DNA of 64,000 nt from an uncultured Acidobacteriota bacterium. Its GTDB lineage: Bacteria > Acidobacteriota > Polarisedimenticolia > J045. Below are positions 22,369 to 50,045 of the stretch, in pieces. A program made the position numbers and the translations under genes. Within the stretch, counting starts at the first letter, position 1, and each line of letters opens with the position of its first letter. The notes beneath the pieces are model-generated. The model ran no database searches, was not told the DNA's origin, and saw only the letters and a program-made list of their open reading frames with translations. The stretch is taken from NCBI GenBank assembly GCA_963702425.1, contig CAVPCQ010000016.1, forward strand, positions 64,001-128,000, written 5' to 3'.

Positions 22369-23048
22369 GGCCGCTTCGCGACCGACGGGCAGGGGCTCCC
22401 TTCCGCTTCTGCGACTACGAAGGGCTCGCCATGCCGACCGGCCAACGGGCGTCGAACCTGCGCGAGCTGCTCGAGATCGTGCGCACCGCGCCGCTGGCCG
22501 TGCTGCATCACCACCTCTACCGGTCCCAGCTCCGGCATCGCTTCGGGGCGTGGGACTTCCCCAACGACTTGCGCTCGTGGGCCGCCGATGCCCTTGAGGA
22601 CCGTGCGCTCGCCGAGAAGCTCTCCGCGCTCGATCCCTTCGCGCACGCCGATCTCGAATCGGCGAGAAGCGCGCTGGCCGACGTGATGGAAGACCACCTC
22701 GACGGCCTCGCCTTCGTCCCGTGGGCCCGCCCGGGCGCCGAGTTCCACCTCTCCAGCGGGCACTACTTCGCGCTGCCGGGCGACCGCGAGGCGTGGACGC
22801 TCGGGGAGCTGCGGCACCACCTGGCCGAGGCAACGCTCAACTCGCTCTACTACCACTTCCACGAGGCGCGGCTGCGCGGGCCGGGCGACGACAGCGACGA
22901 TTTCTCGCGCTGGATCGAGGGGCAGTTCGGTCACCTCCCGCTCGTGGACGCCTTCCGGCGGATCGACTTCTTCTTCTACGGTCTCGAGGAGCTGCGGGCC
23001 CGGCTGATCGGCCTGCTCGACCAGGCGCTGGCGGAGGACGCTGCATGA
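22365..23048 (+). CDS. DUF5752-like protein (two internal repeats), TreT-associated
   Basis: Repeated F-x-F...LxEL...YYH...(N/D)DFxxW units; translationally coupled to both neighbours. Confidence 0.7.
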   Translation: MRPLRDRRAGAPFRFCDYEGLAMPTGQRASNLRELLEIVRTAPLAVLHHHLYRSQLRHRFGAWDFPNDLRSWAADALEDRALAEKLSALDPFAHADLESARSALADVMEDHLDGLAFVPWARPGAEFHLSSGHYFALPGDREAWTLGELRHHLAEATLNSLYYHFHEARLRGPGDDSDDFSRWIEGQFGHLPLVDAFRRIDFFFYGLEELRARLIGLLDQALAEDAA

Positions 23049-25426: not shown

Positions 25427-25517
25427 TCCCCGGCCGCGGCAGCGCACTCCCCGCCGGCAGCGCGGCGGAGTAGTGGTGCCTGGAGCGGTTACGGGAGGGG
25501 GGGGCCGATCTCAGAAG

Positions 25518-25556
25518 AAAGCCCCGGCCGGAGCGGCGATCGCTCCGGCCGGGGCG
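25518..25556 (-). terminator. hairpin, likely intrinsic terminator
   Basis: GCCCCGGCCGGAGCG..CGCTCCGGCCGGGGC stem with a TTTCTT tail on the minus strand, just after the 25566 stop. Confidence 0.6.
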
Positions 25557-25565
25557 CATCGAACG

Positions 25566-27755: not shown

Positions 27756-27999
27756 GGCCGTTGTCTCCTCCCGCGCGTGCCGACCGCGACCCGTCCCTTG
27801 GCCGAGGCCCCCCGTGGGCCGTCGTGAAAGCCGGTCAGCGGAAGAAGGGTACGCCGTGTCCGGCGCGAAAGCGTCCTGAAGTTACAGATACCTAATAGTA
27901 AGTTTTCCTTGTTCGGCCGAGACCGTTCCGGGGCGGCTATCTTGAATCCCCTGTATGGTTTGCCGCGCGGCCGAAGACCCGGCTTACCGAAAAAGGTGA

Positions 28000-28028
28000 T
28001 TGACCTTCCCCGTCCATCAGCGTACGAA
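28000..28028 (+). promoter_or_regulatory. candidate sigma70-like promoter for the protease genes
   Basis: TTGACC-17 bp-TACGAA in an AT-richer divergent intergenic region. Confidence 0.35.
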
Positions 28029-28130
28029 GTCGTTGGTTTGGTCTGCTCGGACGGCGCCCACCGCCCGCCGGCGTTCGGCGGGCTTCGCGCTCGTCCAGCG
28101 CAGCGAGCCTCGATTCAAGGGGAGGTCGGC

Positions 28131-31100
28131 ATGTCCGTTGGCGTGGCGTCACGCGTCGTGATTCGTCCGGCAATTCTCGTCGTCGCTCTCGCGCTCCTCC
28201 TGGCGTTGCCTGCGGCAGCCTTCCAGCCGCGGCCGACCGCCGAGCGGTTCGACCACCTCGCCGTGGCCCACCCGGGCGCCACGATCGGGCGCGTGGGCGT
28301 CTCAACGACCGCCCTCCCCTCAGGCGACCCGCTCCGCACCGGTTGGGAGGCGTTCGTCGCCCGGCAGGACGGAGGGTGGGAGGCCTGGATCGACGAGCGC
28401 TCCGGCCTGCCGTCGCTCGCGATCGGCCGCGGCATCTCCTGGACGCCGGCCGGCGCGGCGACGACCCTCGACGAACTCGCCGCGAAGGCGCTGCAGTTTC
28501 TCGAACAGAACCGCCTCCTCCTCGGCGACTGGGCGGGCCAGATCGAGCTCGACCGCGCGGCCTCCGGGCTGCTCGACGGGCGGATCTGGCAGATCTCGTT
28601 CCGCCAGGTGGTCAACGGCGTGCCGGTCGAGGGCTCGCGCTACGACTTCCAGGTCGCGGACGGGAACCTGGTCGCGTTCGGCGCGACCGCCTGGGGCAAG
28701 GTGCGCACCTCGCCGATCCCGCGCCTCTCGGCGGACGAGGCCCACGCCTCGCTGATGCAGAATCTCGGCACCGCGGCGCCGTCGACGCTGGAACTGCGCG
28801 GCATCCCGGAACTGCGCCTGGTGCCGGTCGACCCCGCGGGCGCCACCGCGGCCGCCTGGAATGGTCCGCGCGGCGAAGGGTACGGCCATCGCCTCGTCTG
28901 GCGCTTCACGCTCTCCGTGCCGGGCGAGTCGCCGACCTGGGTGGCCGAGATCGACGCCGCCACGGGGACGGTTGCCGCGCTCTTCGACGACACCCGCTAC
29001 GAGCGGATCAAGGGCGGGGTCTACCCGATCTCCGATGACCAGCTCTGCCCGTCCGGCTGCGAGCAGCCGGACTACCCGATGCCGTTCGCCGACTACTCCG
29101 TCGACGGCGTCGCGCAGCCCCCGACCGGCGACCACGGCCTCTACGAGTGCAGCCCCCCGGGCGCGACCGTCACGACCCGCCTCGCCGGCCCCTACGTCCG
29201 GGTCCAGGACAACTGCGGGCCGATCTCGGAGAGCACGACCTGCGACAACCCGCTCGACCTGCGGGCCGGCCCGGGCACCGACTGCGTCGTGCCGGAGGGC
29301 TCGTCGGCCGGCAACACGCACTCCTCGCGCTCCGGCTTCTTCCACCTCAACCGTTCGATGGAGAAGGGCCGCGCCTGGCTCCCCGCCAACAACTGGCTCA
29401 AGCAGCAGCTGGTCGACAACGTCAACATCAACTCGACCTGCAACGCCTACTGGAACGGCGCGGTCAACTTCTACAAGTCGGGCGGCGGCTGCCGGAACAC
29501 CGGCGAGATCATGGGCGTCTTCGTCCACGAGTGGGGCCACGGGATCGACGCCAACGACGGCGGCGGCTACGACAACCCGTCCGAGGCCTACGCCGACGTC
29601 GTCGCCCTGTTCGAGACCCGCGAGAGCTGCGTCGGACGCGGCTTCTACGAGTCGCAGAACTGCGACGGCTACGGCAACGCGTGCATCAACTGCACCGGCA
29701 TCCGTGACCAGGACTGGGACAAGCACGTCAACCACGCACCGTCCACCCCGTCCGGCTTCATCCAGAACAACTGCGGCGGCGGCGGCGGACCGTGCGGCAA
29801 GGAAGAGCACTGCGAAGGCTACCTGGCCGGCGAGACGGTCTGGGACCTCGCGGCGCGCGACCTGGTCACCACCGGCGGCCTCGACCCCGATTCGGCCTGG
29901 CAGTTGGCGGAGAAGCTGTTCTACGTGTCGCGCGGAGGTTCGGGCGGCAACGCCTACAACTGCTCGCTCCCGAATGCCGACGGCTGCGCGACGACGAGCT
30001 GGTTCCAGAAGTTCCGCGTCGTCGACGACGACGACGGCAACCTCAACAACGGCACGCCGCACGCGGCCTCGATCTTCGCGGCCTTCAACCGCCACGGCAT
30101 CGCCTGCGGCACGGCCGCCGACAACTCGAACAAGAACTCCTCGACCTGCCCCGCGCTGGCCAAGCCGGTCATCACCACGAAGGCCCTGACCAACGCGGTC
30201 GAACTGACCTGGGGCGCGGTCACGAACGCGGCGAAGTACAAGATTCTCCGCTCGGACCTGGGCTGCGACCGCGGGCAGATCATCATCGACTCCCCCGCGG
30301 CGCCGGCGACGACCTACACCGACTTCGACCTGGCGAACGACTTCACGGTCTACTACCGCGTGCAGGCGGTCGGCAGCAACGGCGCCTGCGAGAGCGCGGT
30401 CTCCAACTGCGTCGGCGCCTCGGCCGCCCCGTTCGCCGGCAACGTGCGCTTCCTGGCCGGGACCTACGGCTGCAGCAACACGATCACGCTCCGCGTGCGG
30501 GACGCCAACGTCGTCGGCTCCTCGGTGACGGTCACGGTCTGGTCGACGACCGAGCCGGTCCGCGAGACCCTCGTGCTCAACGAGACCGCGCCCGGTTCCG
30601 GCAAGTTCGAGGGGACGATCGTCACCACCTCCGCGCCCCCGCAGACCGGCGACGGCGCGCTCTCGATCCAGAACGGCGACACGCTGACCGCGGAGTACAT
30701 CGACGCCAACGACGGCTCGGGCGGTTTCAACATCGCGCGGCAGCACACCGCAACCGGCGACTGCGTCTTCCCGGTCGTCACCGGCGTGCGCGACGAGGGG
30801 GTCACAGACGTCGCTGCGACCGTCAAGTGGGACACCGACGAGCTCTCCGACACCCTGCTGCTCTGGGGCCCGACGAAGCCCCCCTCGACCAGCACCGCGG
30901 GCGCGCCCCGCGTCGCGGCCCACGAGGTGCGGCTGAACGGGCTGACCTCCTGCACCACCTACTGGTACGAGGTTCGTTCCACCGATCCGGCCGGCAACAT
31001 CGCACGGTCCGACAACGGCGGCGCCTGGTACCACTTCGAGACGCTCGGCAACTTCGGCGACGGTCTCCAGCCGTGTCACGCCGGCCGCGTCACATTCGAC

Positions 31101-32843
31101 CGGCCGACGTTCTCCTGCGCCGACGGTGTCACCTTCCGCCTCGTCGACCAGGACCTGAACCGCAGCCCGGTCGCGGTCGACACCGCGGTCGTGCTCGTGA
31201 CCAGCACCACGGAGCCCACGGGCGAGTGGGTGACGATCATCGAGACCGGTGCCAACACCTCACGCTTCAACGGCTCGATCGCGACTGCGGGCGGCGCGCC
31301 GGCCGCGGACGGGACGCTCCAGACCTCGAACGGCGACGTCATCAGCGTGACCTACCAGGACGCCGACGACGGCACGGGCGAGTCGCACATCTCCTACGCG
31401 ACCTCGGTCGCGGACTGCGCCGGGCCGAAGATCGCCTCGGTCTCCGTCGACACGATCACGAACGCCCGGGCGACGATCCACTTCACGACCTCCGAGCCGT
31501 CGGACACGGTCGTCGAATGGGGCACCACGCCGGCCCTGGGCCAGGTGACGAGCAATACCTCCAGGGTCACCACCCACGACACCCTGCTCAACCAGTTCGA
31601 CTCCTGCCAGACGGTCTGGTTCCGGGTCAAGACGACCGACCAGTACGGCAACCTGCGCGTCGCGGACGACGGCGGCCAGCCGTTCTTCTTCCACACCTCG
31701 CTGATCCCGGGCCTCTACTACCACGAGTCGTTCGAGAACAATCCGGTGGGCTGGACGCTCCAGGGGGAGTGGGAGATCGGCGAGCCCAGGGGGCTCGGCG
31801 CGTACGGCGGCGGCGCGGACCCGGCCGCGGCGTACAACAACCGCAGGACCCTCGGTCACGACCAGACCGGCCGCGGGGCGAACCTCGGCCGCTACGAGCC
31901 CGGCGTGAACGAGAAGGCACGGATGCCGGTGCAGACTGCGACGACGTGGACGCACACCAAGCTGATGCTCTATCGCCACCTCGTCGCCGGCTCCGGCGAC
32001 GACGCCGCGATCTGGATCTTCGCACCGGCCGGCCTGCCGCTCTTCCGCACCGACAACGCCCTGACGATCGACCAGGGCTACCAGCTCGCCACGTGGGACC
32101 TCAGCGGGCAGATCGACGGCAAGCCCTCGGTCTTCCTCGAGTTCCAGCAGAAGGCGAACGGCGCGGACCAGTACGCCGGCTGGACGGTGGACGAGATCAT
32201 CTTCAAGGACGGCAGCAAGCCCGACTTCGGACCGTGCGGCAACTGCGGCAGCGCGCCGACCTTCGCCGGCGCGACGTCCGCGATCGACAACAACGCCTGC
32301 GGCGCGACCGGCGTCACGGTCTCCTGGGACGGCGCCCCCGCGTGGGGGACCGGTGCGAGCGGAACCTACTCCGTCTACCGCGGCACCACGCCGGGCTTCG
32401 CCGCGGACCCGGCGCACCGCGTCGCCAAGGGCGTCGTCGGGCTCTCCTACAACGACACTACCGCGCCCGCGGGGACGCTCTACTACCTCGTCCGGGCGGA
32501 GAACGACGAGACCTGCTCCAGCGGACCGCAGAACGGCGGCCTCGTCGATGACAACGCGGTCTATGTCCCGGTGACGGAAACGACCAGCCGGCCGACGCCC
32601 GCGGGAATCGGCGGCCTGGCCGTTTCCCGGCCGTCGCTGTCCCACATTCGGCTGTCGTGGTCGGCCGCCTCCGGCGCCACGGCCTACCGCGTCTTCCGCT
32701 CGCTCTCCCCCGCTCCCGGCGGCTTCGGCGTGCTGGGCGAGGCGAGCGGGCTCACCTTCGACGATCTCGGCTCGGGCGCCACGCTCGAGACCTACTTCTA
32801 CCTGGTCCGCGGCCTCAACCCCTGCGGCACGGAAGGTCCTTAG
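28131..32843 (+). CDS. large secreted zinc metallopeptidase (M4/M36-like with FTP/PepSY-like propeptide) + multidomain beta-sandwich tail
   Basis: GGAGG RBS, signal peptide, FRQVVNGVPVEG and IDAATG propeptide motifs, NAYWNG, HEWGH, SEAYAD; FN3-like tail. Confidence 0.85.
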   Translation: MSVGVASRVVIRPAILVVALALLLALPAAAFQPRPTAERFDHLAVAHPGATIGRVGVSTTALPSGDPLRTGWEAFVARQDGGWEAWIDERSGLPSLAIGRGISWTPAGAATTLDELAAKALQFLEQNRLLLGDWAGQIELDRAASGLLDGRIWQISFRQVVNGVPVEGSRYDFQVADGNLVAFGATAWGKVRTSPIPRLSADEAHASLMQNLGTAAPSTLELRGIPELRLVPVDPAGATAAAWNGPRGEGYGHRLVWRFTLSVPGESPTWVAEIDAATGTVAALFDDTRYERIKGGVYPISDDQLCPSGCEQPDYPMPFADYSVDGVAQPPTGDHGLYECSPPGATVTTRLAGPYVRVQDNCGPISESTTCDNPLDLRAGPGTDCVVPEGSSAGNTHSSRSGFFHLNRSMEKGRAWLPANNWLKQQLVDNVNINSTCNAYWNGAVNFYKSGGGCRNTGEIMGVFVHEWGHGIDANDGGGYDNPSEAYADVVALFETRESCVGRGFYESQNCDGYGNACINCTGIRDQDWDKHVNHAPSTPSGFIQNNCGGGGGPCGKEEHCEGYLAGETVWDLAARDLVTTGGLDPDSAWQLAEKLFYVSRGGSGGNAYNCSLPNADGCATTSWFQKFRVVDDDDGNLNNGTPHAASIFAAFNRHGIACGTAADNSNKNSSTCPALAKPVITTKALTNAVELTWGAVTNAAKYKILRSDLGCDRGQIIIDSPAAPATTYTDFDLANDFTVYYRVQAVGSNGACESAVSNCVGASAAPFAGNVRFLAGTYGCSNTITLRVRDANVVGSSVTVTVWSTTEPVRETLVLNETAPGSGKFEGTIVTTSAPPQTGDGALSIQNGDTLTAEYIDANDGSGGFNIARQHTATGDCVFPVVTGVRDEGVTDVAATVKWDTDELSDTLLLWGPTKPPSTSTAGAPRVAAHEVRLNGLTSCTTYWYEVRSTDPAGNIARSDNGGAWYHFETLGNFGDGLQPCHAGRVTFDRPTFSCADGVTFRLVDQDLNRSPVAVDTAVVLVTSTTEPTGEWVTIIETGANTSRFNGSIATAGGAPAADGTLQTSNGDVISVTYQDADDGTGESHISYATSVADCAGPKIASVSVDTITNARATIHFTTSEPSDTVVEWGTTPALGQVTSNTSRVTTHDTLLNQFDSCQTVWFRVKTTDQYGNLRVADDGGQPFFFHTSLIPGLYYHESFENNPVGWTLQGEWEIGEPRGLGAYGGGADPAAAYNNRRTLGHDQTGRGANLGRYEPGVNEKARMPVQTATTWTHTKLMLYRHLVAGSGDDAAIWIFAPAGLPLFRTDNALTIDQGYQLATWDLSGQIDGKPSVFLEFQQKANGADQYAGWTVDEIIFKDGSKPDFGPCGNCGSAPTFAGATSAIDNNACGATGVTVSWDGAPAWGTGASGTYSVYRGTTPGFAADPAHRVAKGVVGLSYNDTTAPAGTLYYLVRAENDETCSSGPQNGGLVDDNAVYVPVTETTSRPTPAGIGGLAVSRPSLSHIRLSWSAASGATAYRVFRSLSPAPGGFGVLGEASGLTFDDLGSGATLETYFYLVRGLNPCGTEGP

Positions 32844-32855
32844 TCCACCGGAAAG

Positions 32856-35800
32856 GTGAAGGTACAGATCATGACGCGCGCGCTCGTCGCCCTGGTGGTG
32901 GTGCTCGGCTTCACCTTCACGCTGGGCGGCGAGCCCGCGCTGCTGATCCGGCTCGATCGGCGCGGGCCGTCCGACCTTTCTGCGCTTGCCGCGGACGGTG
33001 TTCCGGTCGTCCTCGATGCCCAGACGCTGCTGCTGGTCCACGGTGACGCTGCGCGACTGGCGTGGCTGCTGGAGCGCGGCTGGAGCGCCTCCGTCGTCGA
33101 CACCGGCCCCGGCCGATGGGACTACGTCCAGGCCGGGCTGCGCGACGACAGCGACATCGGTGCGCTCACGGTCGCCGGGCCGATCGTGATGTCGGCCGAG
33201 AACTGGGTCCTGGTGCGGATCCCGGCCGGCGCATCGCTCGAGCCGCTGACCCGCGCCGGGGCCTTCCTCTACCGGCTCCCGCGGCACGGCATCGCCCCGC
33301 CGCGGGTCCCCTCCGAACCGGCCGAGACGCGCTCCGACTTCGGCTCCCCCGACCCGATCGTTCAGAAGATCGTGTCCGCCGTCAGCCCGGCACAGATCGA
33401 CGACAACTGGCTCGACCTGACCACCAACCCACCGACCGGCACGCGCTTCTCATCCGCACAGGGTTGCCGCGACTCCGCGACCTACTGCCGCGACGTCTTC
33501 GCCGGCCTCGGCCTCGGCGCCGAGCTGCAGAACTGGAGCGTCTCCCACGCGCCGAACGCGATCGGCACCCGCCAGGGGGCGATCGACCCCTCCAAGGTCT
33601 ACATCGTGATCGGACACCTCGACGACCTTCCTTCGAGCGGGCCGGCCCCGGGCGCCGACGACAACGCCTCGGGCACCGTCAACGTCCTCGAGAACGCGCG
33701 CGCGATGAACTGCTGGGCCTTCCGCAACACCGTGAAGTACATCGCCTGTACCGGCGAGGAGCAGGGCCTGCTGGGCTCCGACGCCTACGCCCAGGACGCG
33801 CTGAACCGCGGCGAGGACATCCGCGGCGTGATCAACATGGACATGATCGCGTGGGCCGGGAACAACGCCCCCAATCCGGAGAATCTCGACCTCAACTACA
33901 ACGGCCCGTCCCAGTGGCTGGGCGAGAAGTTCGCCGACGCGGCCACGACGTACGGCACCGGCCTCGTGGTCGACGCCTTCTACTGCCCGTCGCTGACCGC
34001 CTCCGACCACGCCTCGTTCTGGGAGCGCGGCTGGCCGGCCGTCTGCGGGATCACCGACAACGAAGGCTACTGCGGCCACGCCGGGAATTACCCCTACTAC
34101 CACCAGTCGACCGACACGATCGCCAACTGCGGCGACAAGCAGTTCTTCTACTCCGTCGTGAAGACCTCGGCCGCGACGCTGGCGGAGCTCGCCGGGGCGT
34201 TCAAGATCTCGTTCTCGAAGCCGACCTACGCCTGCGGAACGAACCTGACGGTCGTGCTCGGCGATCGCGACAAGGACACCAACCCGGCCACGCGCGAAAC
34301 GGTGGCGGTCGAGGTCTGGAGCGACACCGAGACCGTGCCCGAGACGCTCGTCCTCACCGAGCGCACGGTGCACTCGATGATCTTCGACGCCGTCCTGCCG
34401 ACGACGACCGCCCCCCCGCTCACCGGGGACGGGCTGCTGTCGGTGGCCCCCGGCGACGCGCTTCACGCCCGCTACGTCGACGCGCTCGACTGCGACGGCG
34501 GGACGAACGTCCCCTACCTCGCCGACGCGCGCGTCGACTGCGTCGGCCCGGCGATCTCGGCGGTCGGCACGACGGGGGTCAGCGACACCGCGGCGAGGAT
34601 CGTCTGGACGACCGACGAGGCCTCCGACAGCGTCGCGACCTGGGGACCCGTGAAGCCGCCGGCCACGACGACGCCCGGGAACCGCGACACGACCGCGCAC
34701 GAGGTCAGCCTCTCGGGGCTGCAGTCCTGCACCGTCTACTGGTTCGACACGCGCTCAGCGGACGGCGCCGGCAACCTCGCGCTGGCCGACAACGGCGGCA
34801 CGTACTTCCACTTCGAGACGCTGGGGAACTTCGGCAGCGGGCTGCAGCCCTGCCACGCGGGCCGCGTGTCGATCGACAGGCCGACCTTCGCCTGCTCCGA
34901 GGCGGCGACCTTCCGGGTCACCGACATCGACCTCAACACCAATCCCGGGGTCGCGGAAACGGTGCTGCTCCAGGCCTCGTCGACCACGGAGCCGGCCGGC
35001 GAGTGGATCACGGCGACCGAGACGGGGCCGAACACTTCGGTCTTCGCCGCGTCGATTCCGCTGCAGGCGGGCTCGCCCACGCCCGGCGACGGCGTCGCTG
35101 GCCGTCGCAGACGGCGACACGCTGACCGCGACCTATCGCGACGCCGACGACGGCGCGGGGGCGCGCGCGATCTCGTACGCGACGGCGGCGCTGGACTGCG
35201 CCGGACCGCTCGTCTCGAACCTGCGCGCCGAGGCGATCACCGACGTCCGGGCGACGATCCGCTTCACGACCGCCGAGCCTGGCGACACCGTCGTCGAGTG
35301 GGGCACGACCCCGGCGCTCGGCCAGACGATCACGAACGCTGCGCTCGTGCTCGAGCACGCGGCGACGATCAACCAGGGGAACAGCTGCCAGGCGCTCTAC
35401 TTCCGCGTCCGGTCGAAGGACCAGTTCGGCAACGAGCGGGTCGCCTCGGAGGGGGGCGCGCCGTACCAGCTCCAGGTCGGCCGGATCCCGGGGCTCTACT
35501 GGAAGGAGAGCTTCGAGAGCGGAACGAACGGCTGGACGCTGCAGGGCGACTGGGAGATCGGTGCGCCGCAGGGCAAGGGCGGCTCCGGCGGCGGCCGGCC
35601 CGATCCCGCCGTGGCCTACAACCAGGGCAGGTCGCTCGGCCACGACCTGAGCGGCAAGGGGACCTTCCCCGGCGACTACGAGCCGGGGAGGACGGAGTTC
35701 GCCCGCAGCGCCGCGCTCAACGGCACGACCTGGCAGCGCACGAAACTGCTCTTCCAGCGCCGGCTGAACAGCGGCGCCGGTGACCAGGCCACCGCCTGGA

Positions 35801-36627
35801 TCTACGCGCCGAGCGGCACCAGTTTCTACAACTCGAACAACCTGCCGGTGATCGAAAGCGAATGGTCGCTGCAGAGCATCGACGTGCGCTCGGCGGTCGA
35901 CGGCAAGCCCTCGGTGCAGATCGAGTTCCGCCAGAAGTCCGACGGCGCGGGCAACTTCTCGGGCTGGAACGTCGACGAGATCATCTTCAAGGACGGCGCG
36001 CTGCCCGACTACGGCGCCTGTGGCGGCTGCGGGGCCGCGCCCTCCTTTGCCGGGGCGAGCGGCGCCGTGGACACCGACGCCTGCGGCGCCGGCGGCGTGA
36101 CGGTGTCCTGGCAGCGGAGCGCCGCCTGGGGCTCGGGAGCCGGCGGCAGCTACGCCGTCTACCGCGGGCCGGCTCCCGGTTTCCCGGCCGACGCGGCGCA
36201 CCGCGTCGCGAGCGGCGTGACCGCGCTCGCCACCACCGACGCCGGCGCGCCGGATGGCGCGCTCCACTACCTCGTCCGCGCCGAGAACGACGAAACCTGC
36301 TCGACGGGTCCCGGCAACGGCGGCGTGATGGACGACAACGCCGTCTACGTTCCGGTGACCAACACGGGGGTCCGGCCGCTGCCGGCCGAGGTCCGGACGC
36401 TCGCGGTCTCGATCGTCGGCGGTGCGCACGTCCACCTGGCCTGGAGTCCCGTGGCCGAGGCGCCGCGAACCCGCGTCTACCGCGCGCTGGCGCCGGAGCC
36501 GGGCGGGTTCTCGACGATCGGCGAGAGCACCGGGGCCGCATTCGACGATCTCGGCCAGGGAGCCGACCTCGAGACCTACTTCTACCTGGTGCGCGGCGTC
36601 AACGCCTGCGGCCAGGAAGGCCCCTAG
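32856..36627 (+). CDS. secreted M28 family peptidase + same multidomain tail (one frameshift ~35097)
   Basis: GHLDD, GADDNASG, GEEQGLLGS, NMDM, SDH, YYH; removing one G at ~35097 restores GDGVLAVADGDTLT and joins the 35347-36627 ORF. Confidence 0.85.
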
Positions 36628-36638
36628 CGGCGCGCTCG

Positions 36639-37028
36639 ATGACAAAGCGCCCGAACAGGACGATCGATCGCGAGCGGCTGGTCGGCGGCTGGCGGCTCGT
36701 CACCTATGACCACATCGACATACGCGACCGCCGTCGTCCGGCGGCGGCCTGGTTCGACGGTCTCGTCGTCTTCGAGCCCGGCGGCTACCTGACCGTCGTG
36801 ATCAACCGCGACGCGCCTGCCGACCGGCCGCAGGACGGGACGATCGCCTACGGCGCACGGTACGAACTGGACGGCAACACGATCCGCAACGAGGTCCGCG
36901 TCGCGAGCGTGCGCCACTGGGTCGGCACCGTGCTCGAGCGGACCGCGACCCTCGACGGCGACCGGATCACCTTCGCGACCGCGAAGTCCGAATCCGGCCA
37001 CTACGAGCTGATCTGGGAGCGGCTGTAG
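36639..37028 (+). CDS. lipocalin-like domain protein
   Basis: LVGGWRLV at the N-terminus, IAYGARY, C-terminal LIWERL; stop supplied by a REP GTAG. Confidence 0.7.
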   Translation: MTKRPNRTIDRERLVGGWRLVTYDHIDIRDRRRPAAAWFDGLVVFEPGGYLTVVINRDAPADRPQDGTIAYGARYELDGNTIRNEVRVASVRHWVGTVLERTATLDGDRITFATAKSESGHYELIWERL

Positions 37029-37184
37029 GGGCCGGCCTCTGTGCCGGCCCGAAACGGGCCACGCGTTGGCCGGGCCGGCACAGAGGCCGGCCCCTACGGC
37101 GCCACGCGGAACGCGGTCGAGGCGAGCCGGGCCGGCACGGAGGCCGGCCCCTACGGCGCCACGCGGAACGCGGTCGAGGCGAGC
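37025..37184. repeat. REP cluster: forward REP 37025-37050, inverted REPs 37072-37097 and 37129-37154 in a 57-bp tandem duplication
   Basis: GTAGGGGCCGGCCTCTGTGCCGGCCC and its reverse complements; the duplicated unit contains the last ~34 nt of the convergent gene. Confidence 0.9.
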
Positions 37185-39283
37185 AGCCCCGGCGGGCGCG
37201 CGGCGGCGGGCGCTCCGGCCGTGCCGATCGACCCGGCCACCAACTCCGGATCCGCTGCCGTGTCGACGACGGCGAAGGTGTAGTGCCCCTCCGTCAGCGT
37301 GAACTCCGGGATCGTCAATCGCGCCTGCGTGCAGAAGGTCCCCGGGCCGTCCGGCTCGGCCAGCGCCAGCGCCGACTCGGGCATCGGCTGGACCGAGCGG
37401 GCCCCGTCGGGCGCGGTCGAGATCAGCAGGTGACGGACCTTCCGGCGCGCCTCGGCGCGATCCGGCCCGCACAGGACGTAGCTCAGGGACACGCGGTCGC
37501 CCCCGTCGGCCGGTCGCCCCTCGGTCACGACGCGGAACGACCCGCGCCCGCTCTCGCGCTTCGCCGCGGTCATGCCGGGCCGCCACACCAGATCGAGCCC
37601 CGACGCGGCCTCGACCCGCGCCGCCATCGCCGTCCACTCGTCGCGGCCCCCCTTGCGGAACACGACCGTACTCCGACCCGCGCCGGCGGCGTCGGCCTCG
37701 AGATCGGTGATCACGCCGCGCGCGACGTGGATGCCGTCCTTGCGGTAGGCGCAGGGCACCTCGATCGTGAACCCGGCACGGGCCCTGGGCGAAGGCAGCT
37801 TCGGCAGCCGGAGCGCGACCTCGCCGAGCGTCTCGCCGCCGACCTGGCAGACCGGGTCGAGCCCCGCCCCGTTGTCGCGCTGCACCACGGCATCGACGAG
37901 CAGGCGCGCGCCGAAGGTCCCGTCGGAAGCGGGGATCCAGGTCAGCTCGGACAGCGGGACGCGGAAGCGGGCGAGCAGGACCTCCTTCCCCTGGATCGTC
38001 GACGGGTAGTCGAGCATCACGGACACCGGGGGACGAACGAAGTCGTCGGGCGCCAGGAGGGCGGCGACGCGCCGGTGGGTCAGGCGCTCGGCCCGGGCCT
38101 CGATCGCGACCTGCGAGGGGGCCATCACGCGCAGCCCCCAGAGGTCCTTGAAGCGCTCGGTGTCGAGCTTGACCGCGAGAGAGTGGCGTCGCGTCGGACC
38201 GCCCGGCGGGACCGGCAGGCTGAAGAGGTAGTAGCACGAGAGCTGCTCGGCGGCGCCCGCGAGCGCCGCGCCGAGATCGGTGACGTTCCGGACGGCCCGG
38301 CCGCCGGAGTCGTTCGCCAGCGACGAGAGGATCTCCGAGTTTCCGCCCCCGCCGCTCAGCCCCTCGACGTCGACGGTCCAGATCGCGAACCCCTGCTGCG
38401 CGAGGTCGAGCACCGGGCGCAGGGTGCGCTCGAGCTTCTCGGATTCGGCCCCGAGGAAGCGGAAGCGCGGCGAGGAGAAGAGCACCGCCGCCTTGCGGCC
38501 CGGGAGGTGGGTGTGAGCCTGCAGCATCCCCTCCAGCGCGGCCAGCGTCGCCTGCGGGGAGTAGAGCCCGGCGCCGGACGTCGGCGCCGCGCCGGAGGTG
38601 TTGAACTCGAAGCTCTCCGCCCGGAGAGCGGTCGCGGCGGGCATTCAGCCCGAGCAGCCGCCCTTGCCCGAGCCGGCCGCCGCGACGACCGAAAGATCGT
38701 CGCTCGCCAGCACGCCCGCGATCGCGGCCTGGCCGCCGTCCCCGCGGAAGGCGACCGCGCGGATCGCCGCCGCCGCCTCGCGCAGCCGCGCCGGATCGCG
38801 CGTGAAGCCGGCCGTCAGCTCGCGGACCTGGCGGGTCAGGGCGTAGACCTTGTAGACCTCCGGCCGCGCCGCGGCGCCCGCCGCGACGCCGTCGATCGCG
38901 TCCGCGACCTTCGCGCGGCCGCGCGCGTCGACGTAGTTGAAATCGACGATCACGAGGATCGGCCGCGGCATCCCGTCCCCGACCGCGTCGCAGATCGGGT
39001 CGAAGCGCAGCGCCGCGCGCTCTTCCGTCGTCAGCGGCTGGCCGTCGAGCCGGAAGTCGAACTGCTCGGCGGTCAGGCCGGGGACGGACCGGTAGCTGCC
39101 GGCCTTGGGATCGACGACCGAGACGTCGACCTGCACGAGGCGAGCCTCGGCGCGCTCGACGAGATCGGTCGCCGCGTCCGGAGACGGGGCCGCCGGCGCC
39201 TCGGCGGGGCCGGCCCACGCGGCGGGGCACCCCGCCAGGATCGACGCGACGACGAGACGCGAGAAGAACGGTGAAGGCCGCAC
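37151..39283 (-). CDS. VWA-related domain secreted protein (frameshift ~38645)
   Basis: Signal peptide, ARLVQVDVSVVD..VPGLTAEQF, VDFNY, GRKAAVLFS, LSSLANDSGG, SCYYL; two ORFs in adjacent frames form one protein. Confidence 0.72.
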
Positions 39284-39469
39284 GGTCTCACCCCCCGGCG
39301 CAGTGCCGCTACACCGTTGGCAGGTTACGCGCCTCCGCGGCCTCCTGTCGAGTGGCATCGGGCTCGGGGACGCGGCCCCCCGCGGACCGGCTGCGAGCGC
39401 GTCCGCCCGCATCCGGGGTTCCCCCGGCGGTGCTTTCCCGGTACATTCCGGCAGCTCGGGGAGGTTCTC

Positions 39470-42400
39470 ATGAGGCCGATGTCCCGCCGTGCGGCGTGCG
39501 CCGCGTCCGTCCTGTTCGCCGTCCTGCTCGCGATCGTATCGGTTCCGCTCGCGTCGGCCGCCGGTTCAGCCGCGGCCCCGACCGGAGCCAAGCTGATGGG
39601 CGACCTGCCCGCGGTGCTCGACGCCGCGGGGCCGGGGGAGCGGATCCCGGTCTACTTCGTGCTCGCCGACCAGCTCGAGGGGGACGCGCTGCGCGCGCGG
39701 GTCGCCGCCCTCACCGCCGGGGCCGCGCCGCCGGCCGGCGCCGCGGGCAAGGCCGCGCGCCGCCAGGCCACCGTGAGCGCGCTGCGCGAGCACGCGACGC
39801 AGGCGCAGGCCGGGCTGCTGGCCGCGCTCCGCGCGCTCGAAGCGCAGGGCGCCGCCGCGCGCGTCCGCCCGCTCTGGATCGGCAACGTCGTCGGCGCCGA
39901 CCTGGCGCCGGACGCGGTCCGCGCGCTCGCGGCGCGGCCGGAGGTCGTGCGCGTCAACTGGAATCCCAAGCGCGACGTCTTCCTCGGCGCGCGCGCGAGT
40001 GCCGGACCGAGCGCCGCGCCGGCCGGCTGGCGCGCCCGCTACGGCCTGTCGCCGCTGGCGCCGGCCGGGACCGACGGCCCGGGCATCGACGCCCTCGAGT
40101 GCGGCGTCGTCAAGATGCGCGCACCCGAGGTCTGGAACGAGCTGGGCAACACCGGGGCCGGGGCCGTGATCGCGGTGATCGACACCGGCGTCTGCTGGAC
40201 CCACCCCGACATCGCGAACCAGATCTGGGTCAACCCGGGCGAGGACCTCAATCACAACGGCGTCGTGATGGACGCTGCCGACATGAACGGCGTCGACAAC
40301 GACGGCAACGGCTTCATCGACGACCTGATCGGCTGGAACTTCGACCTCAACACCAACCAGCCGACCGACGAGAACTCGCACGGCTCGCACTGCGCGGGGA
40401 CGGTGGCGGGGGACGGGACGGGCGGGAGCCAGTCCGGGATGGCGCCGGACGCGAAGATCATGGCGGTGCGGGTCGGGGTCAACTTCTCGGACGAGGTCGA
40501 CGTCTGGAACGCGATGCAGTACGCGGCGGCCAACGGCGCCGACGCGATCTCGATGAGCCTGGGCTGGCCGCACGGCCAGAACCCGGACCGGCCGACCTGG
40601 CGCACGAACTGCGAGAACACGATCAACGCCGGGACGGCGATGGTGATCGCGGCCGGCAACGAAGGCCAGGGCGCGGAGCCGGACAACGTCCGGACGCCGG
40701 GCGACGTGCCGCGGGTGATCACGGTCGGGGCGACCGACTGCAGCGACGTCGCGGCGGGGTTCTCGTCGCGCGGGCCGGTGACCTGGCAGGGGATCGCGCC
40801 GTGGAACGACTGGCCCTGGCCCCCGGGGCTGGTCAAGCCGGACATCTCGGCGCCGGGCGTGGACACACTGAGCCACGACGTCTGCTCGGGTTACTCGTAC
40901 AAGTCGGGAACGTCGATGGCGACGCCGCACGTCGCCGGCGCGGTCGCGCTGATCGTGGCGGCCAACCCCGGGCTCGAGCACGACGACATCAAGGCGCTCT
41001 TGGAAGAGACCTCCGTCGACCTCGGCGAGCCGGGCAAGGACAACACCTACGGCACCGGGCGCGTCGACGTCTACGAGGCGGTGCTGCTCTCCGGCTCGCG
41101 CGACGGGCGGATTGCGGTCAAGGAGCAAGCGGTGCGGTGCGGCGGGTCGCTCAACGTCACCGTCTCGGACACCGATCTCAAGAACTTCGGGACGATCCAG
41201 GTCACGGCCGTCTCGACGACGGAGACCGCACCCGAGAGCATCACGCTGACCGAAACCAATCCCGGCAGCGGCGCCTTCAAGGGCGTGGTCCCGATCGGCG
41301 GCGGCGCGCCGCAGGCCGACGGCGTGGTCCAGGCCGCCGACGGCGACACCGTGACCGTGACCTACGTCGACGCCGACAACGGCGCCGGCGGCCTCAACGT
41401 CCCCAAGTCCGACAGCGCCCCGGTCGACTGCAGCACGCCGCGGATCTCGGGCGTCAGCGCCGAGCCGACGATGACCTACGGCGCGATCATCCGCTGGACC
41501 ACCGACGAGGCGTCCGACAGCCTGGTCGACTACGGCAAGCAGATCCCGCCCGACCGCAGCACCCTCAACGGCGCCCCGACGACGCAGCACCAGGTGACGC
41601 TGACCGGGCTCGAGCAGTGCACGATCTACCGCTACCGGGTCAGCTCGACCGACCGGGTCGGCAACAAGGCGACCGACGACAACGGCGGCGCCTACTACTA
41701 CTTCGAGGTGATGGGCGACTTCGGCCAGGGGCCGCAGTCGTGCCACGCCGGCAAGACGACGCTCGACCGGGCGGTCTACTCCTGCGCCGACACGGCCACG
41801 CTCGAGGTCTCGGACATGGACCTCAACCTCGATCCCGGCGCGATCGACGGCGGCGATGCTGCTGGTCACGAGCACCACCGAGCCGGCGGGCGAATGGATC
41901 GCGGTGACGGAGACCGGCGCCAACAGCTCGCGCTTCCGCGGAACCGTCGCGACTGCCGGCGGGGCGCCCGCGCCCGACGGCCGGCTCCAGCTCGCCGAAG
42001 GCGACACCCTGACGGTCAGCTACCACGACGCCGACGACGGCGTCGGCAACCCCCGCTGGACGCTATGCGACCGCGATCGCCGACTGCGCCGGCCCCCGCA
42101 TCTCGGACCTTCGGATCGACACCATCACCGACGCGCGCGCGACGGTCCGCTTCACGACGGACGAGCCGGCGAGCGCGGTCGTCGAGTGGGGCACGACGCC
42201 GGCGCTGGGTCAGACCACGTCCCGCGCGTCGCTCCAGACGGCGCACGACGATGCTGCTCAACGACTTCAGCTCGTGCCAGCGCGCCTACGTCCGCGTGCG
42301 CGTCACCGACGAGCACGGCTACGAGACCGTGGCCGACAACCTCGGAACGCCGCACGCCTTCAGCCTCGGCCTGATCCCGGGCCTCTACTGGAAGGAGAGC

Positions 42401-43515
42401 TTCGAGGGCTCGACCGCGGGCTGGACGCTGGGCGGCGAGTGGCAGGTCGGCGCGCCGCAGGGCGAAGGGCGGATCGGGCGGCAGTCTCCCCGACCCGACC
42501 AGGGCGTACAACAACGGCAAGGTGCTGGGACACGACCTGACAGGCCTCGGCGGCAACCCGGGGGCCTACGAGCCGAGCCGCACCGAGAAGGCGCGCTCCC
42601 CGAACCAGAATGCGACGACCTGGCACAACACCAGGCTGCTGCTCTACCGCCAGCTCAACGCCGGCGACGGCGACGAGGCCTCGCTCTGGCTGTACGCGGG
42701 CCCGGGCCTCCCGCTGTTCCGCAGCACCGGCGCGGTGATCGAGGGCGACTGGTCGCTCCAGACCTTCGACATCGCGTCGCAGGTGGACGGGAAGCCGGTC
42801 GTCTCGCTCGAGTTCAGCCAGAGGTCGGACGCGTCGGGCCAGTTCTCCGGCTGGAACGTCGACGAGATCGTCTTCAAGGACGGCACCAAGCCCGACTACG
42901 GACCCTGCGGCGGATGCAGCGGGGCGCCCACGTTCAGCGGGGCGGTCTCGGCGCTGGACAACAACGCCTGCGGCGCCGGTGGGGTGACGGTCAGCTGGAC
43001 TGCGGCCCCGGCCTGGGGTACCGGCAGTGCCGGGACCTACGCCGTCTACCGCGACACGACACCCGTCTTCACGCCGTCCGCCGCCAACCGCGTCGCCGCC
43101 GGCCTGGGCGGCCTCTCGTTCAACGACGCCGCGGCCCCGAACGGCGCGCTCTACTACCTCGTGCGCGCGGAGAACGACGAGACCTGCTCCTCCGGCCCGA
43201 ACAACGGGGGGCTCACGGACGCCAACGCGCACACCGTGCCGGTGACGAACACGGCGACCCGCCCGCTGCCGGGCGCGATCGGATCGCTCGCGGTCTCGGT
43301 CGTCGGGGGCAGCCACCTGCGGCTCTCCTGGAGCGCGCCAGCCGACGCCAGCGGCTACCGCATCTACCGCTCGACCTCGCCGCTCCCTGCGTCGTTCGCA
43401 GGCGGTCGGCGACACGGCGGGGCTGACCTGGGACGACACCGGCCGCGCGGCCGATGCGTCGACCTACTTCTACCTGGTCCGCGGGACCAACCCCTGCGGG
43501 CAGGAGGGGCCCTGA
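39470..43515 (+). CDS. secreted S8 subtilisin-like serine protease + same multidomain tail (several frameshifts ~41850-42490 and ~43400)
   Basis: Triad IDTG / HGSHCAG / GTSMATPH, oxyanion AAGN; tail segments homologous to the two upstream proteases; ends QEGP TGA 43513-43515. Confidence 0.85.
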
Positions 43516-43538
43516 TCGCGGGACGGGGCCTGATTCTG

Positions 43539-43612
43539 GTAGGGGCCGGCCTCTGTGCCGGCCCGCCCGTCGCCGACCGGCATTGCGGGCCGGCACAGAG
43601 GCCGGCCCCTAC
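43539..43612. repeat. REP inverted pair (REPIN-like)
   Basis: GTAGGGGCCGGCCTCTGTGCCGGCCC 43539-43564 and exact reverse complement 43587-43612. Confidence 0.9.
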
Positions 43613-43645
43613 CGTCGGCGGCGGGCGCGAGGGACAATCCCCGCC

Positions 43646-45811
43646 GTGCGCGCCGCCGCCCTGCTCCTGCTCGCCGCCGCCGGCCTGGCCGGGGCCGCCG
43701 TCGCCGCGCCCCCCGCCGCGCCCCCGAACCCGCCCGCCGCCGCGACCCCCCGCCCCAGCCTCCTGCTCGTCACCTTCGACACGACCCGCGCCGATCGCAT
43801 CGGCTGCTACGGCGCGAAGGACGCCGCCACCCCGGCGCTCGACGGCCTGGCCCGGCGCGGCGTGCGCTTCGCCGAGGCGCTCTCCCCTGCCCCGCTGACC
43901 CTCCCCGCCCACGCCTCGATCCTGACCGGCCGGTCCCCGCGCGAGCACGGCGCGCGCGACAACGAGGGCTACCGGCTGGCCGAGGCGCAGGTCACGCTGG
44001 CCGAGCGGCTGCAGGCGGCGGGCTACACGACGGCGGCCTTCGTCGGCGCGGCGGTGCTCGATCGCATCACCGGCATCGGGCAGGGGTTCGCGACCTTCGA
44101 CGACCAGGTGCGCGTCGGGCCCGAGCGCTGGTTCGCCTGGCAGGAACGCGCGGCCCAGCAGGTGGTCGACGCGGTCGACGCGCGGCTGGCCGGGCTGAAG
44201 CCGCCCTTCTTCCTGTGGGTCCACTTCTACGACCCGCACCTGCCCTACGTTCCCCCCGAGCCCTGGGCGGCGCGCTTCGCGAAGAGCCCCTACGACGGCG
44301 AGATCGCCTACGCCGACGCGCAGCTCGCGCGGCTGCTGGCGCGGCTGGCGGCGCGCGGGCTCGACCGCAGCCTCGTCGTCGCCGTCGCCGGCGATCACGG
44401 CGAGAGCCTGGGCGAGCACGGCGAGCCGGCGCACGACGTCTTCGTCTACCAGGCGACGCAGCGCGTGCCGCTGATCCTCGCCGGGCCGGGGGTCGCGGCC
44501 GGGCGCGTCGTCGAACAGCGGGTCGGACTGGTCGATCTGGCGCCGACGCTGGCCGAGCTGCTGGGCGTTCCCTTCCCGGAAGCGAGCGGGCGCTCGCAGG
44601 CCCCCTGGATCCGGCCGGCTCCCGCGCCGCCGAAGCCCGCCGAGCCGCGCCTTCTCGAGATCGAGAGCGTCTTCCCGGCGCGCGCCTACGGCTGGGCGCC
44701 GCTCTTCGGCGCCGTGCAGGGGAATCTCAAGTACATCGACGCCCCGCGGCCGGAGCTGTACGACCTGGCGCGCGACCCGCGGGAGTCGACGAACCTGCTC
44801 GACGGCGCGTCGCGCGACGCCGCCGCGCGCGACGCGATCGACCGCGGACGGGCGCTGGCCGCGCGGGTCCACGAGCTGTTCGCGAAGGACGCTGCCGCCC
44901 TCGCTGCGGGGGACGCGCCGGCGGGCGAGGCCGTCGTCGATCCCGAGCAGCGCGAGCGGCTCGCCGCGCTCGGTTACGCGGGCGGCTCGGCGTCGCGGCC
45001 GGGCGACCCGCGGATCGATCCCAAGGACGGCATGACCTTCATCGGCGACCTCGACCGCGCCCGCGAGCGGCTGCAGCGGGGCGACCCGAAGGAGGCCGCC
45101 GCGCTCGCCGCCCGCGTGCTCGCGAGGAACCCGCAGAACCTCCCGGCGCGACTCGCGCTGGGCCAGGCGCAGCTCGCGTCGGGCGACGCGCGGGCCGCGC
45201 AGGCGACCTTCGAGCAGGCGATCGCCCGCGCGCCCGACGACCCGCTGCCGCGGCTGCAGCTCGGCAACGCGCTGCGCCGCCTGGGCGCGACCGATCCCGC
45301 CGCGGCCAAGGCCGCGGCCGAGAGCTACCGCGAAGCGCTCGCGCTGCAGCCGCGCCACGCCCCGACCGTCTACGCGCTGGCCTCGCTGCTGGTCGAGCGC
45401 GGCGACCTCGCGGGCGCCTGCGCCGTGCTCGAGGATGCCGAGCGGCGCGGCGTCGCCGACGGCGCGCTCCTGACGCTGCGCGGTGCGAGCGAGGCGGCGC
45501 GCGGCCGCGCCGAGGCCGCCGACGCCGCCTTCGCGCGCGCGCTGGCGCTCGACCCGTCGGCGGCGCAGGCGCTGGAAGCGCGCGGCAAGCTGGCGTACGC
45601 ACGCGGCGACGCGGCGGCGGCGGCGGGGTTCTACCGGCAGGCCCTGGCCGTCGAGCCGTCGGCCGCGCTGGCGCGCACGCTCGGCGCGATCCTCTGGTTC
45701 GACCTGAAGGACGCCGCCGGTGCGCGGGCCGCCCTGCAGCAGGCGCTCGTGCTGGAACCGGCCGGCCCGGACGCGGACGAGGTCCGCGCCCTCCTGGCGG
45801 AGATCCGCTGA
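43646..45811 (+). CDS. sulfatase-like hydrolase with C-terminal TPR repeats
   Basis: DTTRAD, TLPAHASILTG, HFYDPH, YDGEI, GDHGE; Ala-rich TPR repeats. Confidence 0.88.
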   Translation: MRAAALLLLAAAGLAGAAVAAPPAAPPNPPAAATPRPSLLLVTFDTTRADRIGCYGAKDAATPALDGLARRGVRFAEALSPAPLTLPAHASILTGRSPREHGARDNEGYRLAEAQVTLAERLQAAGYTTAAFVGAAVLDRITGIGQGFATFDDQVRVGPERWFAWQERAAQQVVDAVDARLAGLKPPFFLWVHFYDPHLPYVPPEPWAARFAKSPYDGEIAYADAQLARLLARLAARGLDRSLVVAVAGDHGESLGEHGEPAHDVFVYQATQRVPLILAGPGVAAGRVVEQRVGLVDLAPTLAELLGVPFPEASGRSQAPWIRPAPAPPKPAEPRLLEIESVFPARAYGWAPLFGAVQGNLKYIDAPRPELYDLARDPRESTNLLDGASRDAAARDAIDRGRALAARVHELFAKDAAALAAGDAPAGEAVVDPEQRERLAALGYAGGSASRPGDPRIDPKDGMTFIGDLDRARERLQRGDPKEAAALAARVLARNPQNLPARLALGQAQLASGDARAAQATFEQAIARAPDDPLPRLQLGNALRRLGATDPAAAKAAAESYREALALQPRHAPTVYALASLLVERGDLAGACAVLEDAERRGVADGALLTLRGASEAARGRAEAADAAFARALALDPSAAQALEARGKLAYARGDAAAAAGFYRQALAVEPSAALARTLGAILWFDLKDAAGARAALQQALVLEPAGPDADEVRALLAEIR

Positions 45812-48443: not shown

Positions 48444-48511
48444 GCCCCCTCGCCGATGACTTGGTCCACGTGAACCGAGGGAATGTGCGCCCGAGTTGCG
48501 ATGCCCGCCGC

Positions 48512-50041
<1,530 letters not shown>

Positions 50042-50045
<4 letters not shown>

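Follow-up and report, generated by a model that had tools for sequence, protein, structure and literature searches.

We analysed a 64,000-nucleotide stretch of DNA, hereafter the window, from an uncultured Acidobacteriota bacterium (GTDB lineage Bacteria; Acidobacteriota; Polarisedimenticolia; J045; assembly GCA_963702425.1, contig CAVPCQ010000016.1, positions 64,001 to 128,000 of the forward strand). Three of its genes, g1, g2 and g3, encode protease heads of three different families, each followed by the same cysteine-rich, all-beta tail of about 805 residues. On balance, we favour the reading that they represent a lineage-specific family of secreted peptidases, in which the shared tail would serve as a binding or stalk module that co-localises endo- and exopeptidases. 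An earlier note, made from the letters of the DNA, had described three heads with a shared ordered tail at this locus, and this architecture was borne out: Pfam recognised the M28 and S8 heads, a motif and a structural model pointed to an M4-like head in g1, and the tails proved 54–56% identical. The window has a G+C content of ~71%, and the three large genes lie on its + strand within 28.1–43.5 kb:

28131..32843, + strand: g1, the only intact open reading frame (ORF) of the trio, 1570 aa; predicted thermolysin-like (M4-type) head with propeptide, extra FN3 domain, shared tail.
32856..36627, + strand: g2, M28 aminopeptidase head to ~34151, tail at 34152-36624; in two frames.
39470..43515, + strand: g3, S8 subtilase head to ~41137, tail at 41138-43512; in six frame segments.

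The start codon of g2 is GTG at 32856 or ATG at 32871, and that of g3 is ATG at 39470. Since only 12 nucleotides separate g1 from g2, these two genes are probably co-transcribed. A promoter and terminator scan of positions 27500-44000 returned no more sites than shuffled sequences did.

The three heads are mutually unrelated, with local alignment scores of 38–48, the level expected by chance. The g2 head matched Pfam Peptidase_M28 (PF04389) at 103.3 bits against a cut-off of 21.3 (1.8e-29) and contains the motifs IGHLDD, GADDNASG, GEEQG, NMDMIA and SDHASF, which we take to hold the co-catalytic metal ligands; it is a member of family M28. The g3 head matched Peptidase_S8 (PF00082) at 192.3 bits against a cut-off of 21.8 (1.4e-56), carries VIDTGV, HGSHCAG, AAGNEG and SGTSMATPH in the order seen in subtilisin, and belongs to family S8. 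The N-termini of all three proteins resemble Sec signal peptides, as judged by eye. The g1 head fell below every Pfam cut-off (FTP 16–18 bits, PepSY 15.6, Peptidase_M4 12.1 against a cut-off of 22.4), and its homologues P0004 and P0014 reached 18.5 and 16.9 bits for Peptidase_M4. A profile search of the PDB with 22 relatives of the g1 head matched no M4 chain, and a PDB search with g1 as a single sequence gave nothing useful. A zinc site is nevertheless recognisable in the head:

29526..29597, + strand: g1 zinc site, with HEWGH at 29526-29540 (residues 466-470) and the glutamate motif NPSEAYAD at 29574-29597 (residues 482-489).

Among 22 proteins of the same head class (class A below), H466, E467 and H470 are invariant and E485 is nearly so. 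The gluzincin signature consists of HExxH and a third-ligand glutamate about 20 residues downstream, and the g1 head carries this signature as family M4 does. An AlphaFold model of the head, built with 26 sequences, had a predicted local distance difference test score (pLDDT) of 82.7. In Foldseek searches it superposed on M4 enzymes at template modelling (TM) scores of 0.59–0.64, among them vibriolysin MCP-02 (3nqx; E 6.8e-07, target TM score 0.63), ProA, LasB, aureolysin and thermolysin (0.60), with 9h0y and 1bqb both at 0.64; M36 fungalysins gave a poorer fit (4k90_A and 7qfy, 0.50–0.51). The N-terminal part matched the PepSY protein 5boi (E 3.9e-08) and the MCP-02 propeptide chain (target TM score 0.63). 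Because of the HEWGH and NPSEAYAD motifs and a model that superposes better on M4 than on M36 enzymes, g1 is predicted to be a thermolysin-like metalloprotease, a divergent one of the M4 type, whose propeptide is of the FTP/PepSY type and whose tail is preceded by an additional FN3 domain. A common tail is shared by endopeptidase heads (M4-like, S8) and an exopeptidase head (M28), in line with the modular arrangement that had been proposed.

The tails of g1, g2 and g3 (~805–815 aa) share pairwise identities of 54.3, 55.8 and 54.2% over 779–814 aligned residues. When g1 was searched against the window with tblastn, residues ~756 to 1570 recurred behind the g2 and g3 heads only, giving three copies, and the tails stitched together with an X at each break contain zero stop codons. 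An AlphaFold model of g1 residues 740-1570 (46 aligned sequences) reached a mean pLDDT of 88.7 and a predicted TM score (pTM) of 0.72, and is all-beta with seven domains, D1–D7. The structured part begins at g1 residue 766, after a disordered linker of 26 residues, and the pTM of 0.72 suggests that the domains hold fixed relative positions in a rigid tail. From the N-terminal side, an S-layer-type (surface-layer-type) immunoglobulin (Ig)-like domain and an FN3 domain occur as a pair, twice over, followed by a probably MAM-like jelly roll and two FN3-like domains; this confident model agrees with the domain order that had been read from the letters. Numbered from g1 residue 740, the parts of the tail are as follows:

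30426..30767, + strand: D1, tail residues 27-140, Ig-like beta sandwich in the model; no Pfam match at E <= 1.
30768..31055, + strand: D2, tail residues 141-236, FN3 domain of the purple-acid-phosphatase N-terminal type in the model.
31047..31085, + strand: linker GNFGDGLQPCHAG between the domain pairs, tail residues ~234-248, GNFGxGLQPCHAG.
31080..31421, + strand: D3, tail residues 245-358, Ig-like, of a type repeated in archaeal and anammox S-layer proteins.
31419..31703, + strand: D4, tail residues 358-452, second FN3-like domain in the model; no Pfam match.
31695..32231, + strand: D5, tail residues 450-628, jelly roll (ESFE..GWTL..) in the model.
32223..32561, + strand: D6, tail residues 626-738, cysteine-rich FN3-like domain (CGNCG ... 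YLVRAENDETCS) in the model; no Pfam match.
32553..32840, + strand: D7, tail residues 736-831, terminal FN3-like domain ending in ...NPCGTEGP at the C-terminus; no Pfam match.

D2 is the sole domain with a meaningful Pfam signal, a match to Pur_ac_phosph_N (2.6e-05) whose 25.1 bits lie under the cut-off of 30. Hidden Markov models (HMMs) of D2 and D4 cross-match FN3 arrays. The linker is the most conserved segment, at 68.6% identity between head classes, with C243 invariant and Q241, H244 and G246 nearly invariant. In a profile search of the PDB, the linker and D3 matched residues 1468-1594 of the Nitrosopumilus S-layer protein 8c8k (domain independent E-value 7.5e-10). The D3 region also matched NCBIfam NF052345, the Kustd1514 S-layer family, weakly (1e-9 to 1e-13, 34.8–49.7 bits against a cut-off of 1400), and in Pfam it gave a chance-level match only (TgMIC1, E 0.042). 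D5 is probably MAM-like. Its HMM overlaps Pfam InhA-like_MAM (PF20773) in three of ten distant proteins, P0162 (independent E-value 3e-32), P0238 and P0198; among the other seven, it matches elsewhere in three and nowhere in four. D6 is the most conserved domain (57.6% between-class identity, 20 of 110 columns invariant). Twelve cysteines are invariant across 46 tails, a pattern that fits an extracellular, disulfide-bonded protein.

To define the distribution of the tail, we used a word-indexed search, which gave 185 matches; the head classes listed below rest on the best 120 of them. The tail is strictly C-terminal, its alignment ending at most 4 residues from the protein end in 119 of the 120 homologues, and it follows four classes of head:

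M4-like (class A): 65 of the best 120 matches.
M28 (class B): 30 of the best 120 matches.
S8 (class C): 15 of the best 120 matches.
Second S8 class (class D), with a sub-threshold PPC match and a head of ~715 aa: 9 of the best 120 matches.
Fragment: 1 of the best 120 matches.

A further 24 representatives, with full or short tails, all had heads of classes A–D or were headless fragments, and no non-protease head was found among these and the best 120 matches. No stand-alone tail protein was recognised either; the short matches start in mid-domain and look like truncated ORFs. At E <= 1e-3 an exhaustive search returned 8478 proteins, of which 578 also passed E <= 1e-30. Parsing 146 newly listed proteins gave nine full D1–D7 tails, one near variant and five copies of a short form, D1-D4-D5-D6-D7. 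The remaining parsed proteins reuse the blocks in other ways, as arrays of D2- or D7-type FN3 domains, as giant D3-type arrays, or as D1–D2 repeats combined with D5. This last combination stands behind S8 (9 of 25 scanned), C25 (3) and trypsin-like (2) heads, and relatives with D1–D2 or D5 also carry P_proprotein, MAM, PKD, CBM96 or dockerin domains, the dockerin being in the distant relative P0157. The domain types therefore appear widespread in large secreted proteins, and, as far as these parses indicate, only the fixed seven-domain string is specific. As for the possibility raised beforehand that the tail is a generic, already annotated string, the D1/D3, D2/D4 and D5 blocks are widespread, and the string of seven is lineage-specific and only partially covered by Pfam.

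We then turned to a species-level genome collection, using the best 80 of 142 tail-encoding stretches, which form 60 loci, so that counts per genome are lower bounds. Acidobacteriota is the label of 58 of the 60 loci, seven of them named Polarisedimenticolaceae or Ca. Polarisedimenticola and another Acidobacteria bacterium Mor1; the two loci labelled otherwise sit on contigs of 3 kb and 6 kb. The assemblies with tail genes number 30 and contain at least 68 of these genes (A 35, C 12, B 7, D 5, head off-contig 9), and with four head classes in 30 assemblies the idea of a lineage-specific tail was supported. Many copies are solitary. Class A and class B genes are adjacent, as in the window, at loci L001, L002, L003 and L007; C-A pairs occur in L006, L026 and L043 and an A-A pair in L040. 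The closest relative is L001 (contig CAWDCL010000004.1), which is collinear with window positions 25500-42850 at 90.8% nucleotide identity and served as our reference. Its genome holds the highest number of tail genes, at least six. One of them, a fourth tail gene (L001 676-4959), lies immediately upstream of where the collinear block begins; its M4-like head and the g1 head share 76% identity, and its tail is ~52% identical. The window is without this fourth copy, collinearity beginning at window position 25500 (L001 5124), and two more copies of the same genome are found in L017 and L053.

No conserved non-protease partner gene was found in the flanks of the 60 loci and of the window. Three kinds of candidate were rejected: recurrent flank clusters, which proved to be shadow ORFs on the antisense strand of the protease genes themselves; flank genes such as histidine kinases and GH38, present at 4–6 loci each; and a convergent ORF of ~760 aa with no Pfam family, which lies directly downstream in 8 of the 60 loci and is absent from that position in the window. 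The eight loci are L005, L006, L019, L020, L023, L027, L040 and L057 (for example L057 1285-3564, - strand).

Head class needs 10 changes on a FastTree phylogeny of 121 tails (minimum 3, shuffled mean 49.8) and 9 on a quick IQ-TREE phylogeny of 34 tails. An approximately unbiased (AU) test rejected a single clade for the ten M28-class tails (p = 2e-4), a test weakened by the choice of its 34 tree rows after the first tree had been seen. In protein P0083, the M28 head is 60.6% identical to other M28 heads, and the tail shares 78.5% identity with that of the M4-like P0045, versus 55.2% with the best M28 tail of the main clade. For both proteins the longest contig is given as 15,063 bases, which suggests that their genes lie on the same contig. 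Their identity rises along the tail, from 41% in D1 and 62% in D2 to 87% in the linker and 84–91% in D3–D7, so the exchange is a conversion tract with its start in D2 or the linker. Across 46 tails, D1 alone is specific to the head class (52.3% identity within and 38.7% between classes); for D2–D7 the two values agree, to within ~5 points for D2 and 1 point for D3–D7. These comparisons show that tails have been exchanged between head classes by gene conversion. The earlier proposal that heads are swapped onto a common tail thus needs restating: tails do cross head classes, as the AU test and P0083 indicate, but the unit exchanged is a tract within the tail, and D1 stays with its head. The family illustrates cleanly how a non-catalytic module can evolve in concert while attached to unrelated catalytic domains.

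Under the favoured reading, each protein would be exported through the Sec pathway and consists of a signal peptide, a catalytic head with propeptide and the fixed cysteine-rich, all-beta tail of ~805 residues. The tail has no catalytic role and does not depend on the head; it would act as a rigid stalk that ends in a binding part, and its conserved D5–D7 end would hold all the enzymes on one target, either a particulate protein substrate or the cell's own envelope. There the endopeptidases and the aminopeptidase would act side by side, with their products retained close to the cell. D2–D7 are kept alike, whatever the head, by gene conversion between paralogues. In favour of this reading, relatives of D1/D3 and of D5 occur in S-layer proteins and in the MAM/adhesin domains of other secreted proteases. 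Should the tail bring all the large secreted peptidases to a single place, the coupling of extracellular endo- and exopeptidases would be explained, and the tail would constitute a new targeting module, largely unannotated in Pfam, where the D1/D3-type Ig-like domain and the D5-D6-D7 trio are without a model.

Such a role would suit the organisms concerned. In Ca. Polarisedimenticola svalbardensis, seven secreted peptidases are predicted, from which protein degradation was inferred (PMC8528874); Supplementary Table 5 of that paper lists M28 and S8 entries, and Polarisedimenticolaceae-type Acidobacteriota are proposed as protein degraders in sediments and soils. This was the sole relevant paper found in the literature on peptidases of Polarisedimenticola, Acidobacteriota and Mor1, and the shared tail is not described in the available part of it. 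The earlier note did not recognise the system as a described one, and we likewise found no account of it in the literature, with subscription journals outside the scope.

Among known systems, the closest analogue in logic is that of the gingipains of Porphyromonas gingivalis (RgpA, Kgp, HagA; haemagglutinin/cleaved-adhesin domains). There, too, one genome has several protease genes with a common C-terminal jelly-roll adhesin array, and recombination shuffles the adhesin domains between loci separately from the catalytic domain (PMC5266723). Gingipain precursors form proteinase-adhesin complexes on the cell surface, and the Atlas neighbours of D5–D7 include Cleaved_Adhesin clusters. The differences are equally plain: all gingipain heads are C25, whereas the tail described here follows three catalytic types; gingipains end in the C-terminal domain of the type IX secretion system (T9SS), and none was detected in the tail proteins; the tail has no direct Pfam match to Cleaved_Adhesin; and domain string, phylum and non-pathogenic setting differ. 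Secreted M4 and S8 proteases with PPC, P-domain, PKD or FN3 extensions offer a second comparison, having a signal peptide, a propeptide, a catalytic domain and beta-sandwich accessories. Their extensions are short and variable, unlike the fixed seven-domain order found across four head classes and kept alike by gene conversion. The M6 InhA-type and meprin-type metalloproteases also place a MAM-like jelly roll after a protease head, but the heads studied here come from other families, and D5, with no direct Pfam match, sits inside a string of seven domains.

Several observations weigh against the favoured reading. D5 has no direct match to Pfam PF20773 or PF00629 at E <= 1, and its link to MAM is transitive, made through 3 of 10 proteins only. 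The Atlas neighbours of D5–D7 carry Cleaved_Adhesin, MAM and fn3 at a score of 0.90, a value reached by chance in 4–10% of cases, and are taken as a lead only; the Atlas search with D1–D2 gave scores <= 0.84 and FN3 only. When the whole tail was compared with the PDB in Foldseek, query TM scores were <= 0.18 and the structures matched were all generic Ig/FN3 arrays (contactin, ROS1, titin-like, complement). No lipobox, transmembrane helix or known sorting domain was found by NCBIfam in g1 and four intact homologues, and with no evident anchor, retention at the cell surface would need a receptor. The signal peptides were judged by eye only, and the selection of rows in the AU test reduces its force. 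Finally, g3 has five frame breaks in 1.7 kb and g1 none in 4.7 kb, which is uneven for random error and gives recent decay of g3 some probability.

A different role for the tail would be self-assembly: the peptidases could co-polymerise, or dock on a surface layer through D5–D7 or the S-layer-type Ig domains, to give a mixed coat, or 'peptidosome'. We consider this unlikely. MAM domains drive oligomerisation in meprins, so a MAM-like D5 would be compatible with it, as would the rigid body to which the pTM of 0.72 points. A shared interface would also select for homogenisation of D2–D7 across paralogues. The further argument comes from D3, and more weakly D1, which are homologous to one repeat type of S-layer proteins, including the Nitrosopumilus protein (NmSLP, 8c8k) and, through the weak NF052345 match, Kuenenia Kustd1514. 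NmSLP comprises ten Ig-like domains, the ninth lying at the base of the lattice (PMC11153153). S-layer proteins, however, form a two-dimensional cell-surface lattice and usually are the most abundant proteins of the envelope; the tail proteins share only this one domain type with them and have catalytic heads. The same Ig-like domain is common in giant surface proteins that form no lattice, the short tail matches that might have been stand-alone subunits or scaffolds look like ORF fragments, and the 60 loci yielded no conserved partner gene.

An ordered mixed coat of endo- and exopeptidases, kept compatible by gene conversion, would be a protease counterpart of the cellulosome without dockerin or cohesin, and we give this idea the same small credence. 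The cellulosome had already been offered as a loose analogy for the three window genes. As in the cellulosome, catalytically different enzymes share a non-catalytic C-terminal module, and co-localisation of synergistic enzymes is presumed. The analogy did not hold beyond this. Neither dockerin nor cohesin was found in the three window proteins (Pfam, NCBIfam) or in four intact homologues, and we found no scaffold gene, conserved neighbour or non-protease head; the tail is ~805 aa long against ~70 aa for a dockerin and is restricted to proteases, and no scaffoldin was found nearby or conserved.

The tail might instead serve export or folding, either as a signal for translocation across the outer membrane or for sorting, or as an intramolecular chaperone, and it would be removed at maturity, in the manner of T9SS C-terminal domains or P/PPC domains. 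Its strictly C-terminal position and conserved end (...CG.EGP) would agree with such a function, and relatives bear P_proprotein and PPC-like domains. Proteases often need C-terminal folding aids, and the restriction of the tail to proteases could be understood in this way. We nonetheless hold this explanation to be quite unlikely. At ~805 residues and seven domains the tail far exceeds any known sorting signal, and NCBIfam revealed no known sorting family: no sorting domain (Por_Secre_tail, PEP-CTERM, LPXTG and others) was found at E <= 0.01 in g1, the g2 and g3 pieces and four intact homologues. No secretion genes are conserved beside the loci, and a single folding chaperone is improbable for four unrelated heads.

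A further question is whether g2 and g3 work at all. The earlier note had passed over six frameshifts in them, one in g2 and five in g3 (near 41849, 42062, 42247, 42460 and 43400):

35078..35096, + strand: g2 frameshift, single extra C at 35096 relative to L001.
41849..43402, + strand: g3 frameshifts; compared with L001, one additional G each at 41849, 42062, 42247 and 42460, the fifth change, near 43400, falling past the point where L001 ends.

Taken at face value, these six frame changes would make g2 and g3 true pseudogenes in a decaying cluster in which only g1 works. The crowding of five changes into 1.7 kb of g3, with none in g1, could be read in this way, and two restriction-modification genes found elsewhere in the window, hsdM and hsdR, are likewise broken, being split across frames. 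Yet each indel involves one base and occurs in this assembly alone. L001 shows no break at the same sites and has four private single-base insertions of its own in these three genes, at the equivalents of 29112 and 31787 (g1), 34661 (g2) and 40052 (g3); its proteins P0008 and P0038 are truncated because of these insertions. Intact orthologues are known (P0039, 1251 aa; P0042, 1344 aa). The four comparable insertions in g3 are all G, three of them following AC, and the sites lie 185–213 nucleotides apart, so that the insertions in the window look like systematic sequencing or polishing error rather than random mutation. The corrected frames are stop-free and under purifying selection: the ratio of nonsynonymous to synonymous substitution rates (dN/dS) between the window and L001 is 0.12 in g1, 0.18 and 0.28 in g2, and in g3 0.18 over the head and 0.27 over the tail, against 1.05 when the g3 tail is read in the uncorrected frame as a control. 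Single-base, private, non-shared indels in frames that evolve under purifying selection make assembly error the most likely source of the g2 and g3 frameshifts, and for that reason all three genes are probably functional; decay of g2 and g3 we judge decidedly improbable. Programmed frameshifting in g2 and g3 was also considered and rejected, as the sites are absent from the closest relative and from the intact orthologues. Gene calls in this assembly need frameshift correction before any census.

That the repeated tail is an artefact of assembly duplication, an idea with nothing behind it beyond the repetition itself, can be dismissed almost entirely: the copies are only 54–56% identical, as the divergence already noted had led one to expect, each has orthologues at 84–93% identity in other assemblies, and the gene order recurs in L001, L002 and L003.

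Two genes between g2 and g3 belong to the context of the cluster and stand outside the tail family:

36639..37028, + strand: lipocalin-like small gene (Pfam Lipocalin_5, 2.1e-09).
37151..39565, - strand: gene of unknown family, with an in-frame TGA at 38645-38647.

The TGA of the second gene lies directly 3' of ...GKGGCSG, a CxxU-like context, and is followed by an ATG and a short GC-rich hairpin. L002 shares the TGA at the same site, and L001 reads GGISAPL there, with no stop, in a single ORF of 803 aa. Two adjacent genes, gene fission and a selenocysteine codon are all possibilities. Divergently upstream of g1, positions 25569-27881 (- strand) encode a large protein that is rich in cysteine and contains three Stig1-like repeats (Pfam 5.7e-22).

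Farther downstream, positions 48500-61100 (- strand) look like a defence island, in which the G+C content falls to 0.57 at 58–60 kb. It contains the genes of a type I restriction-modification system: hsdM, split into two pieces (48831-49250 and 49365-49694), hsdS at 51793-53208 and hsdR at 53196-55477 over at least three frames. Also present are a PDC-S27 ATPase (50045-51535), a Schlafen/AlbA_2 protein (55435-57465), a TIR-like ORF (57374-58735), a ThsA Macro-domain protein (58696-59640; PADLOC 6e-65) and AbiJ (60194-61048). Next to the island, a stop-free frame at 61237-63999 (- strand) joins a partial TonB-dependent receptor barrel to a sodium:solute symporter domain, which may reflect another frameshift or two genes sharing one open frame. 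Upstream of the peptidase genes, a trehalose cluster at 19817-24253 (+ strand) comprises Glyco_transf_20 (OtsA-like), a trehalose phosphatase and a TreT-type synthase, with frame labels that shift along 21.4–24.3 kb. Positions 3263-5131 (+ strand) encode a homologue of the topoisomerase VI B subunit (Topo-VIb_trans, 9.9e-59), here in a bacterial genome.

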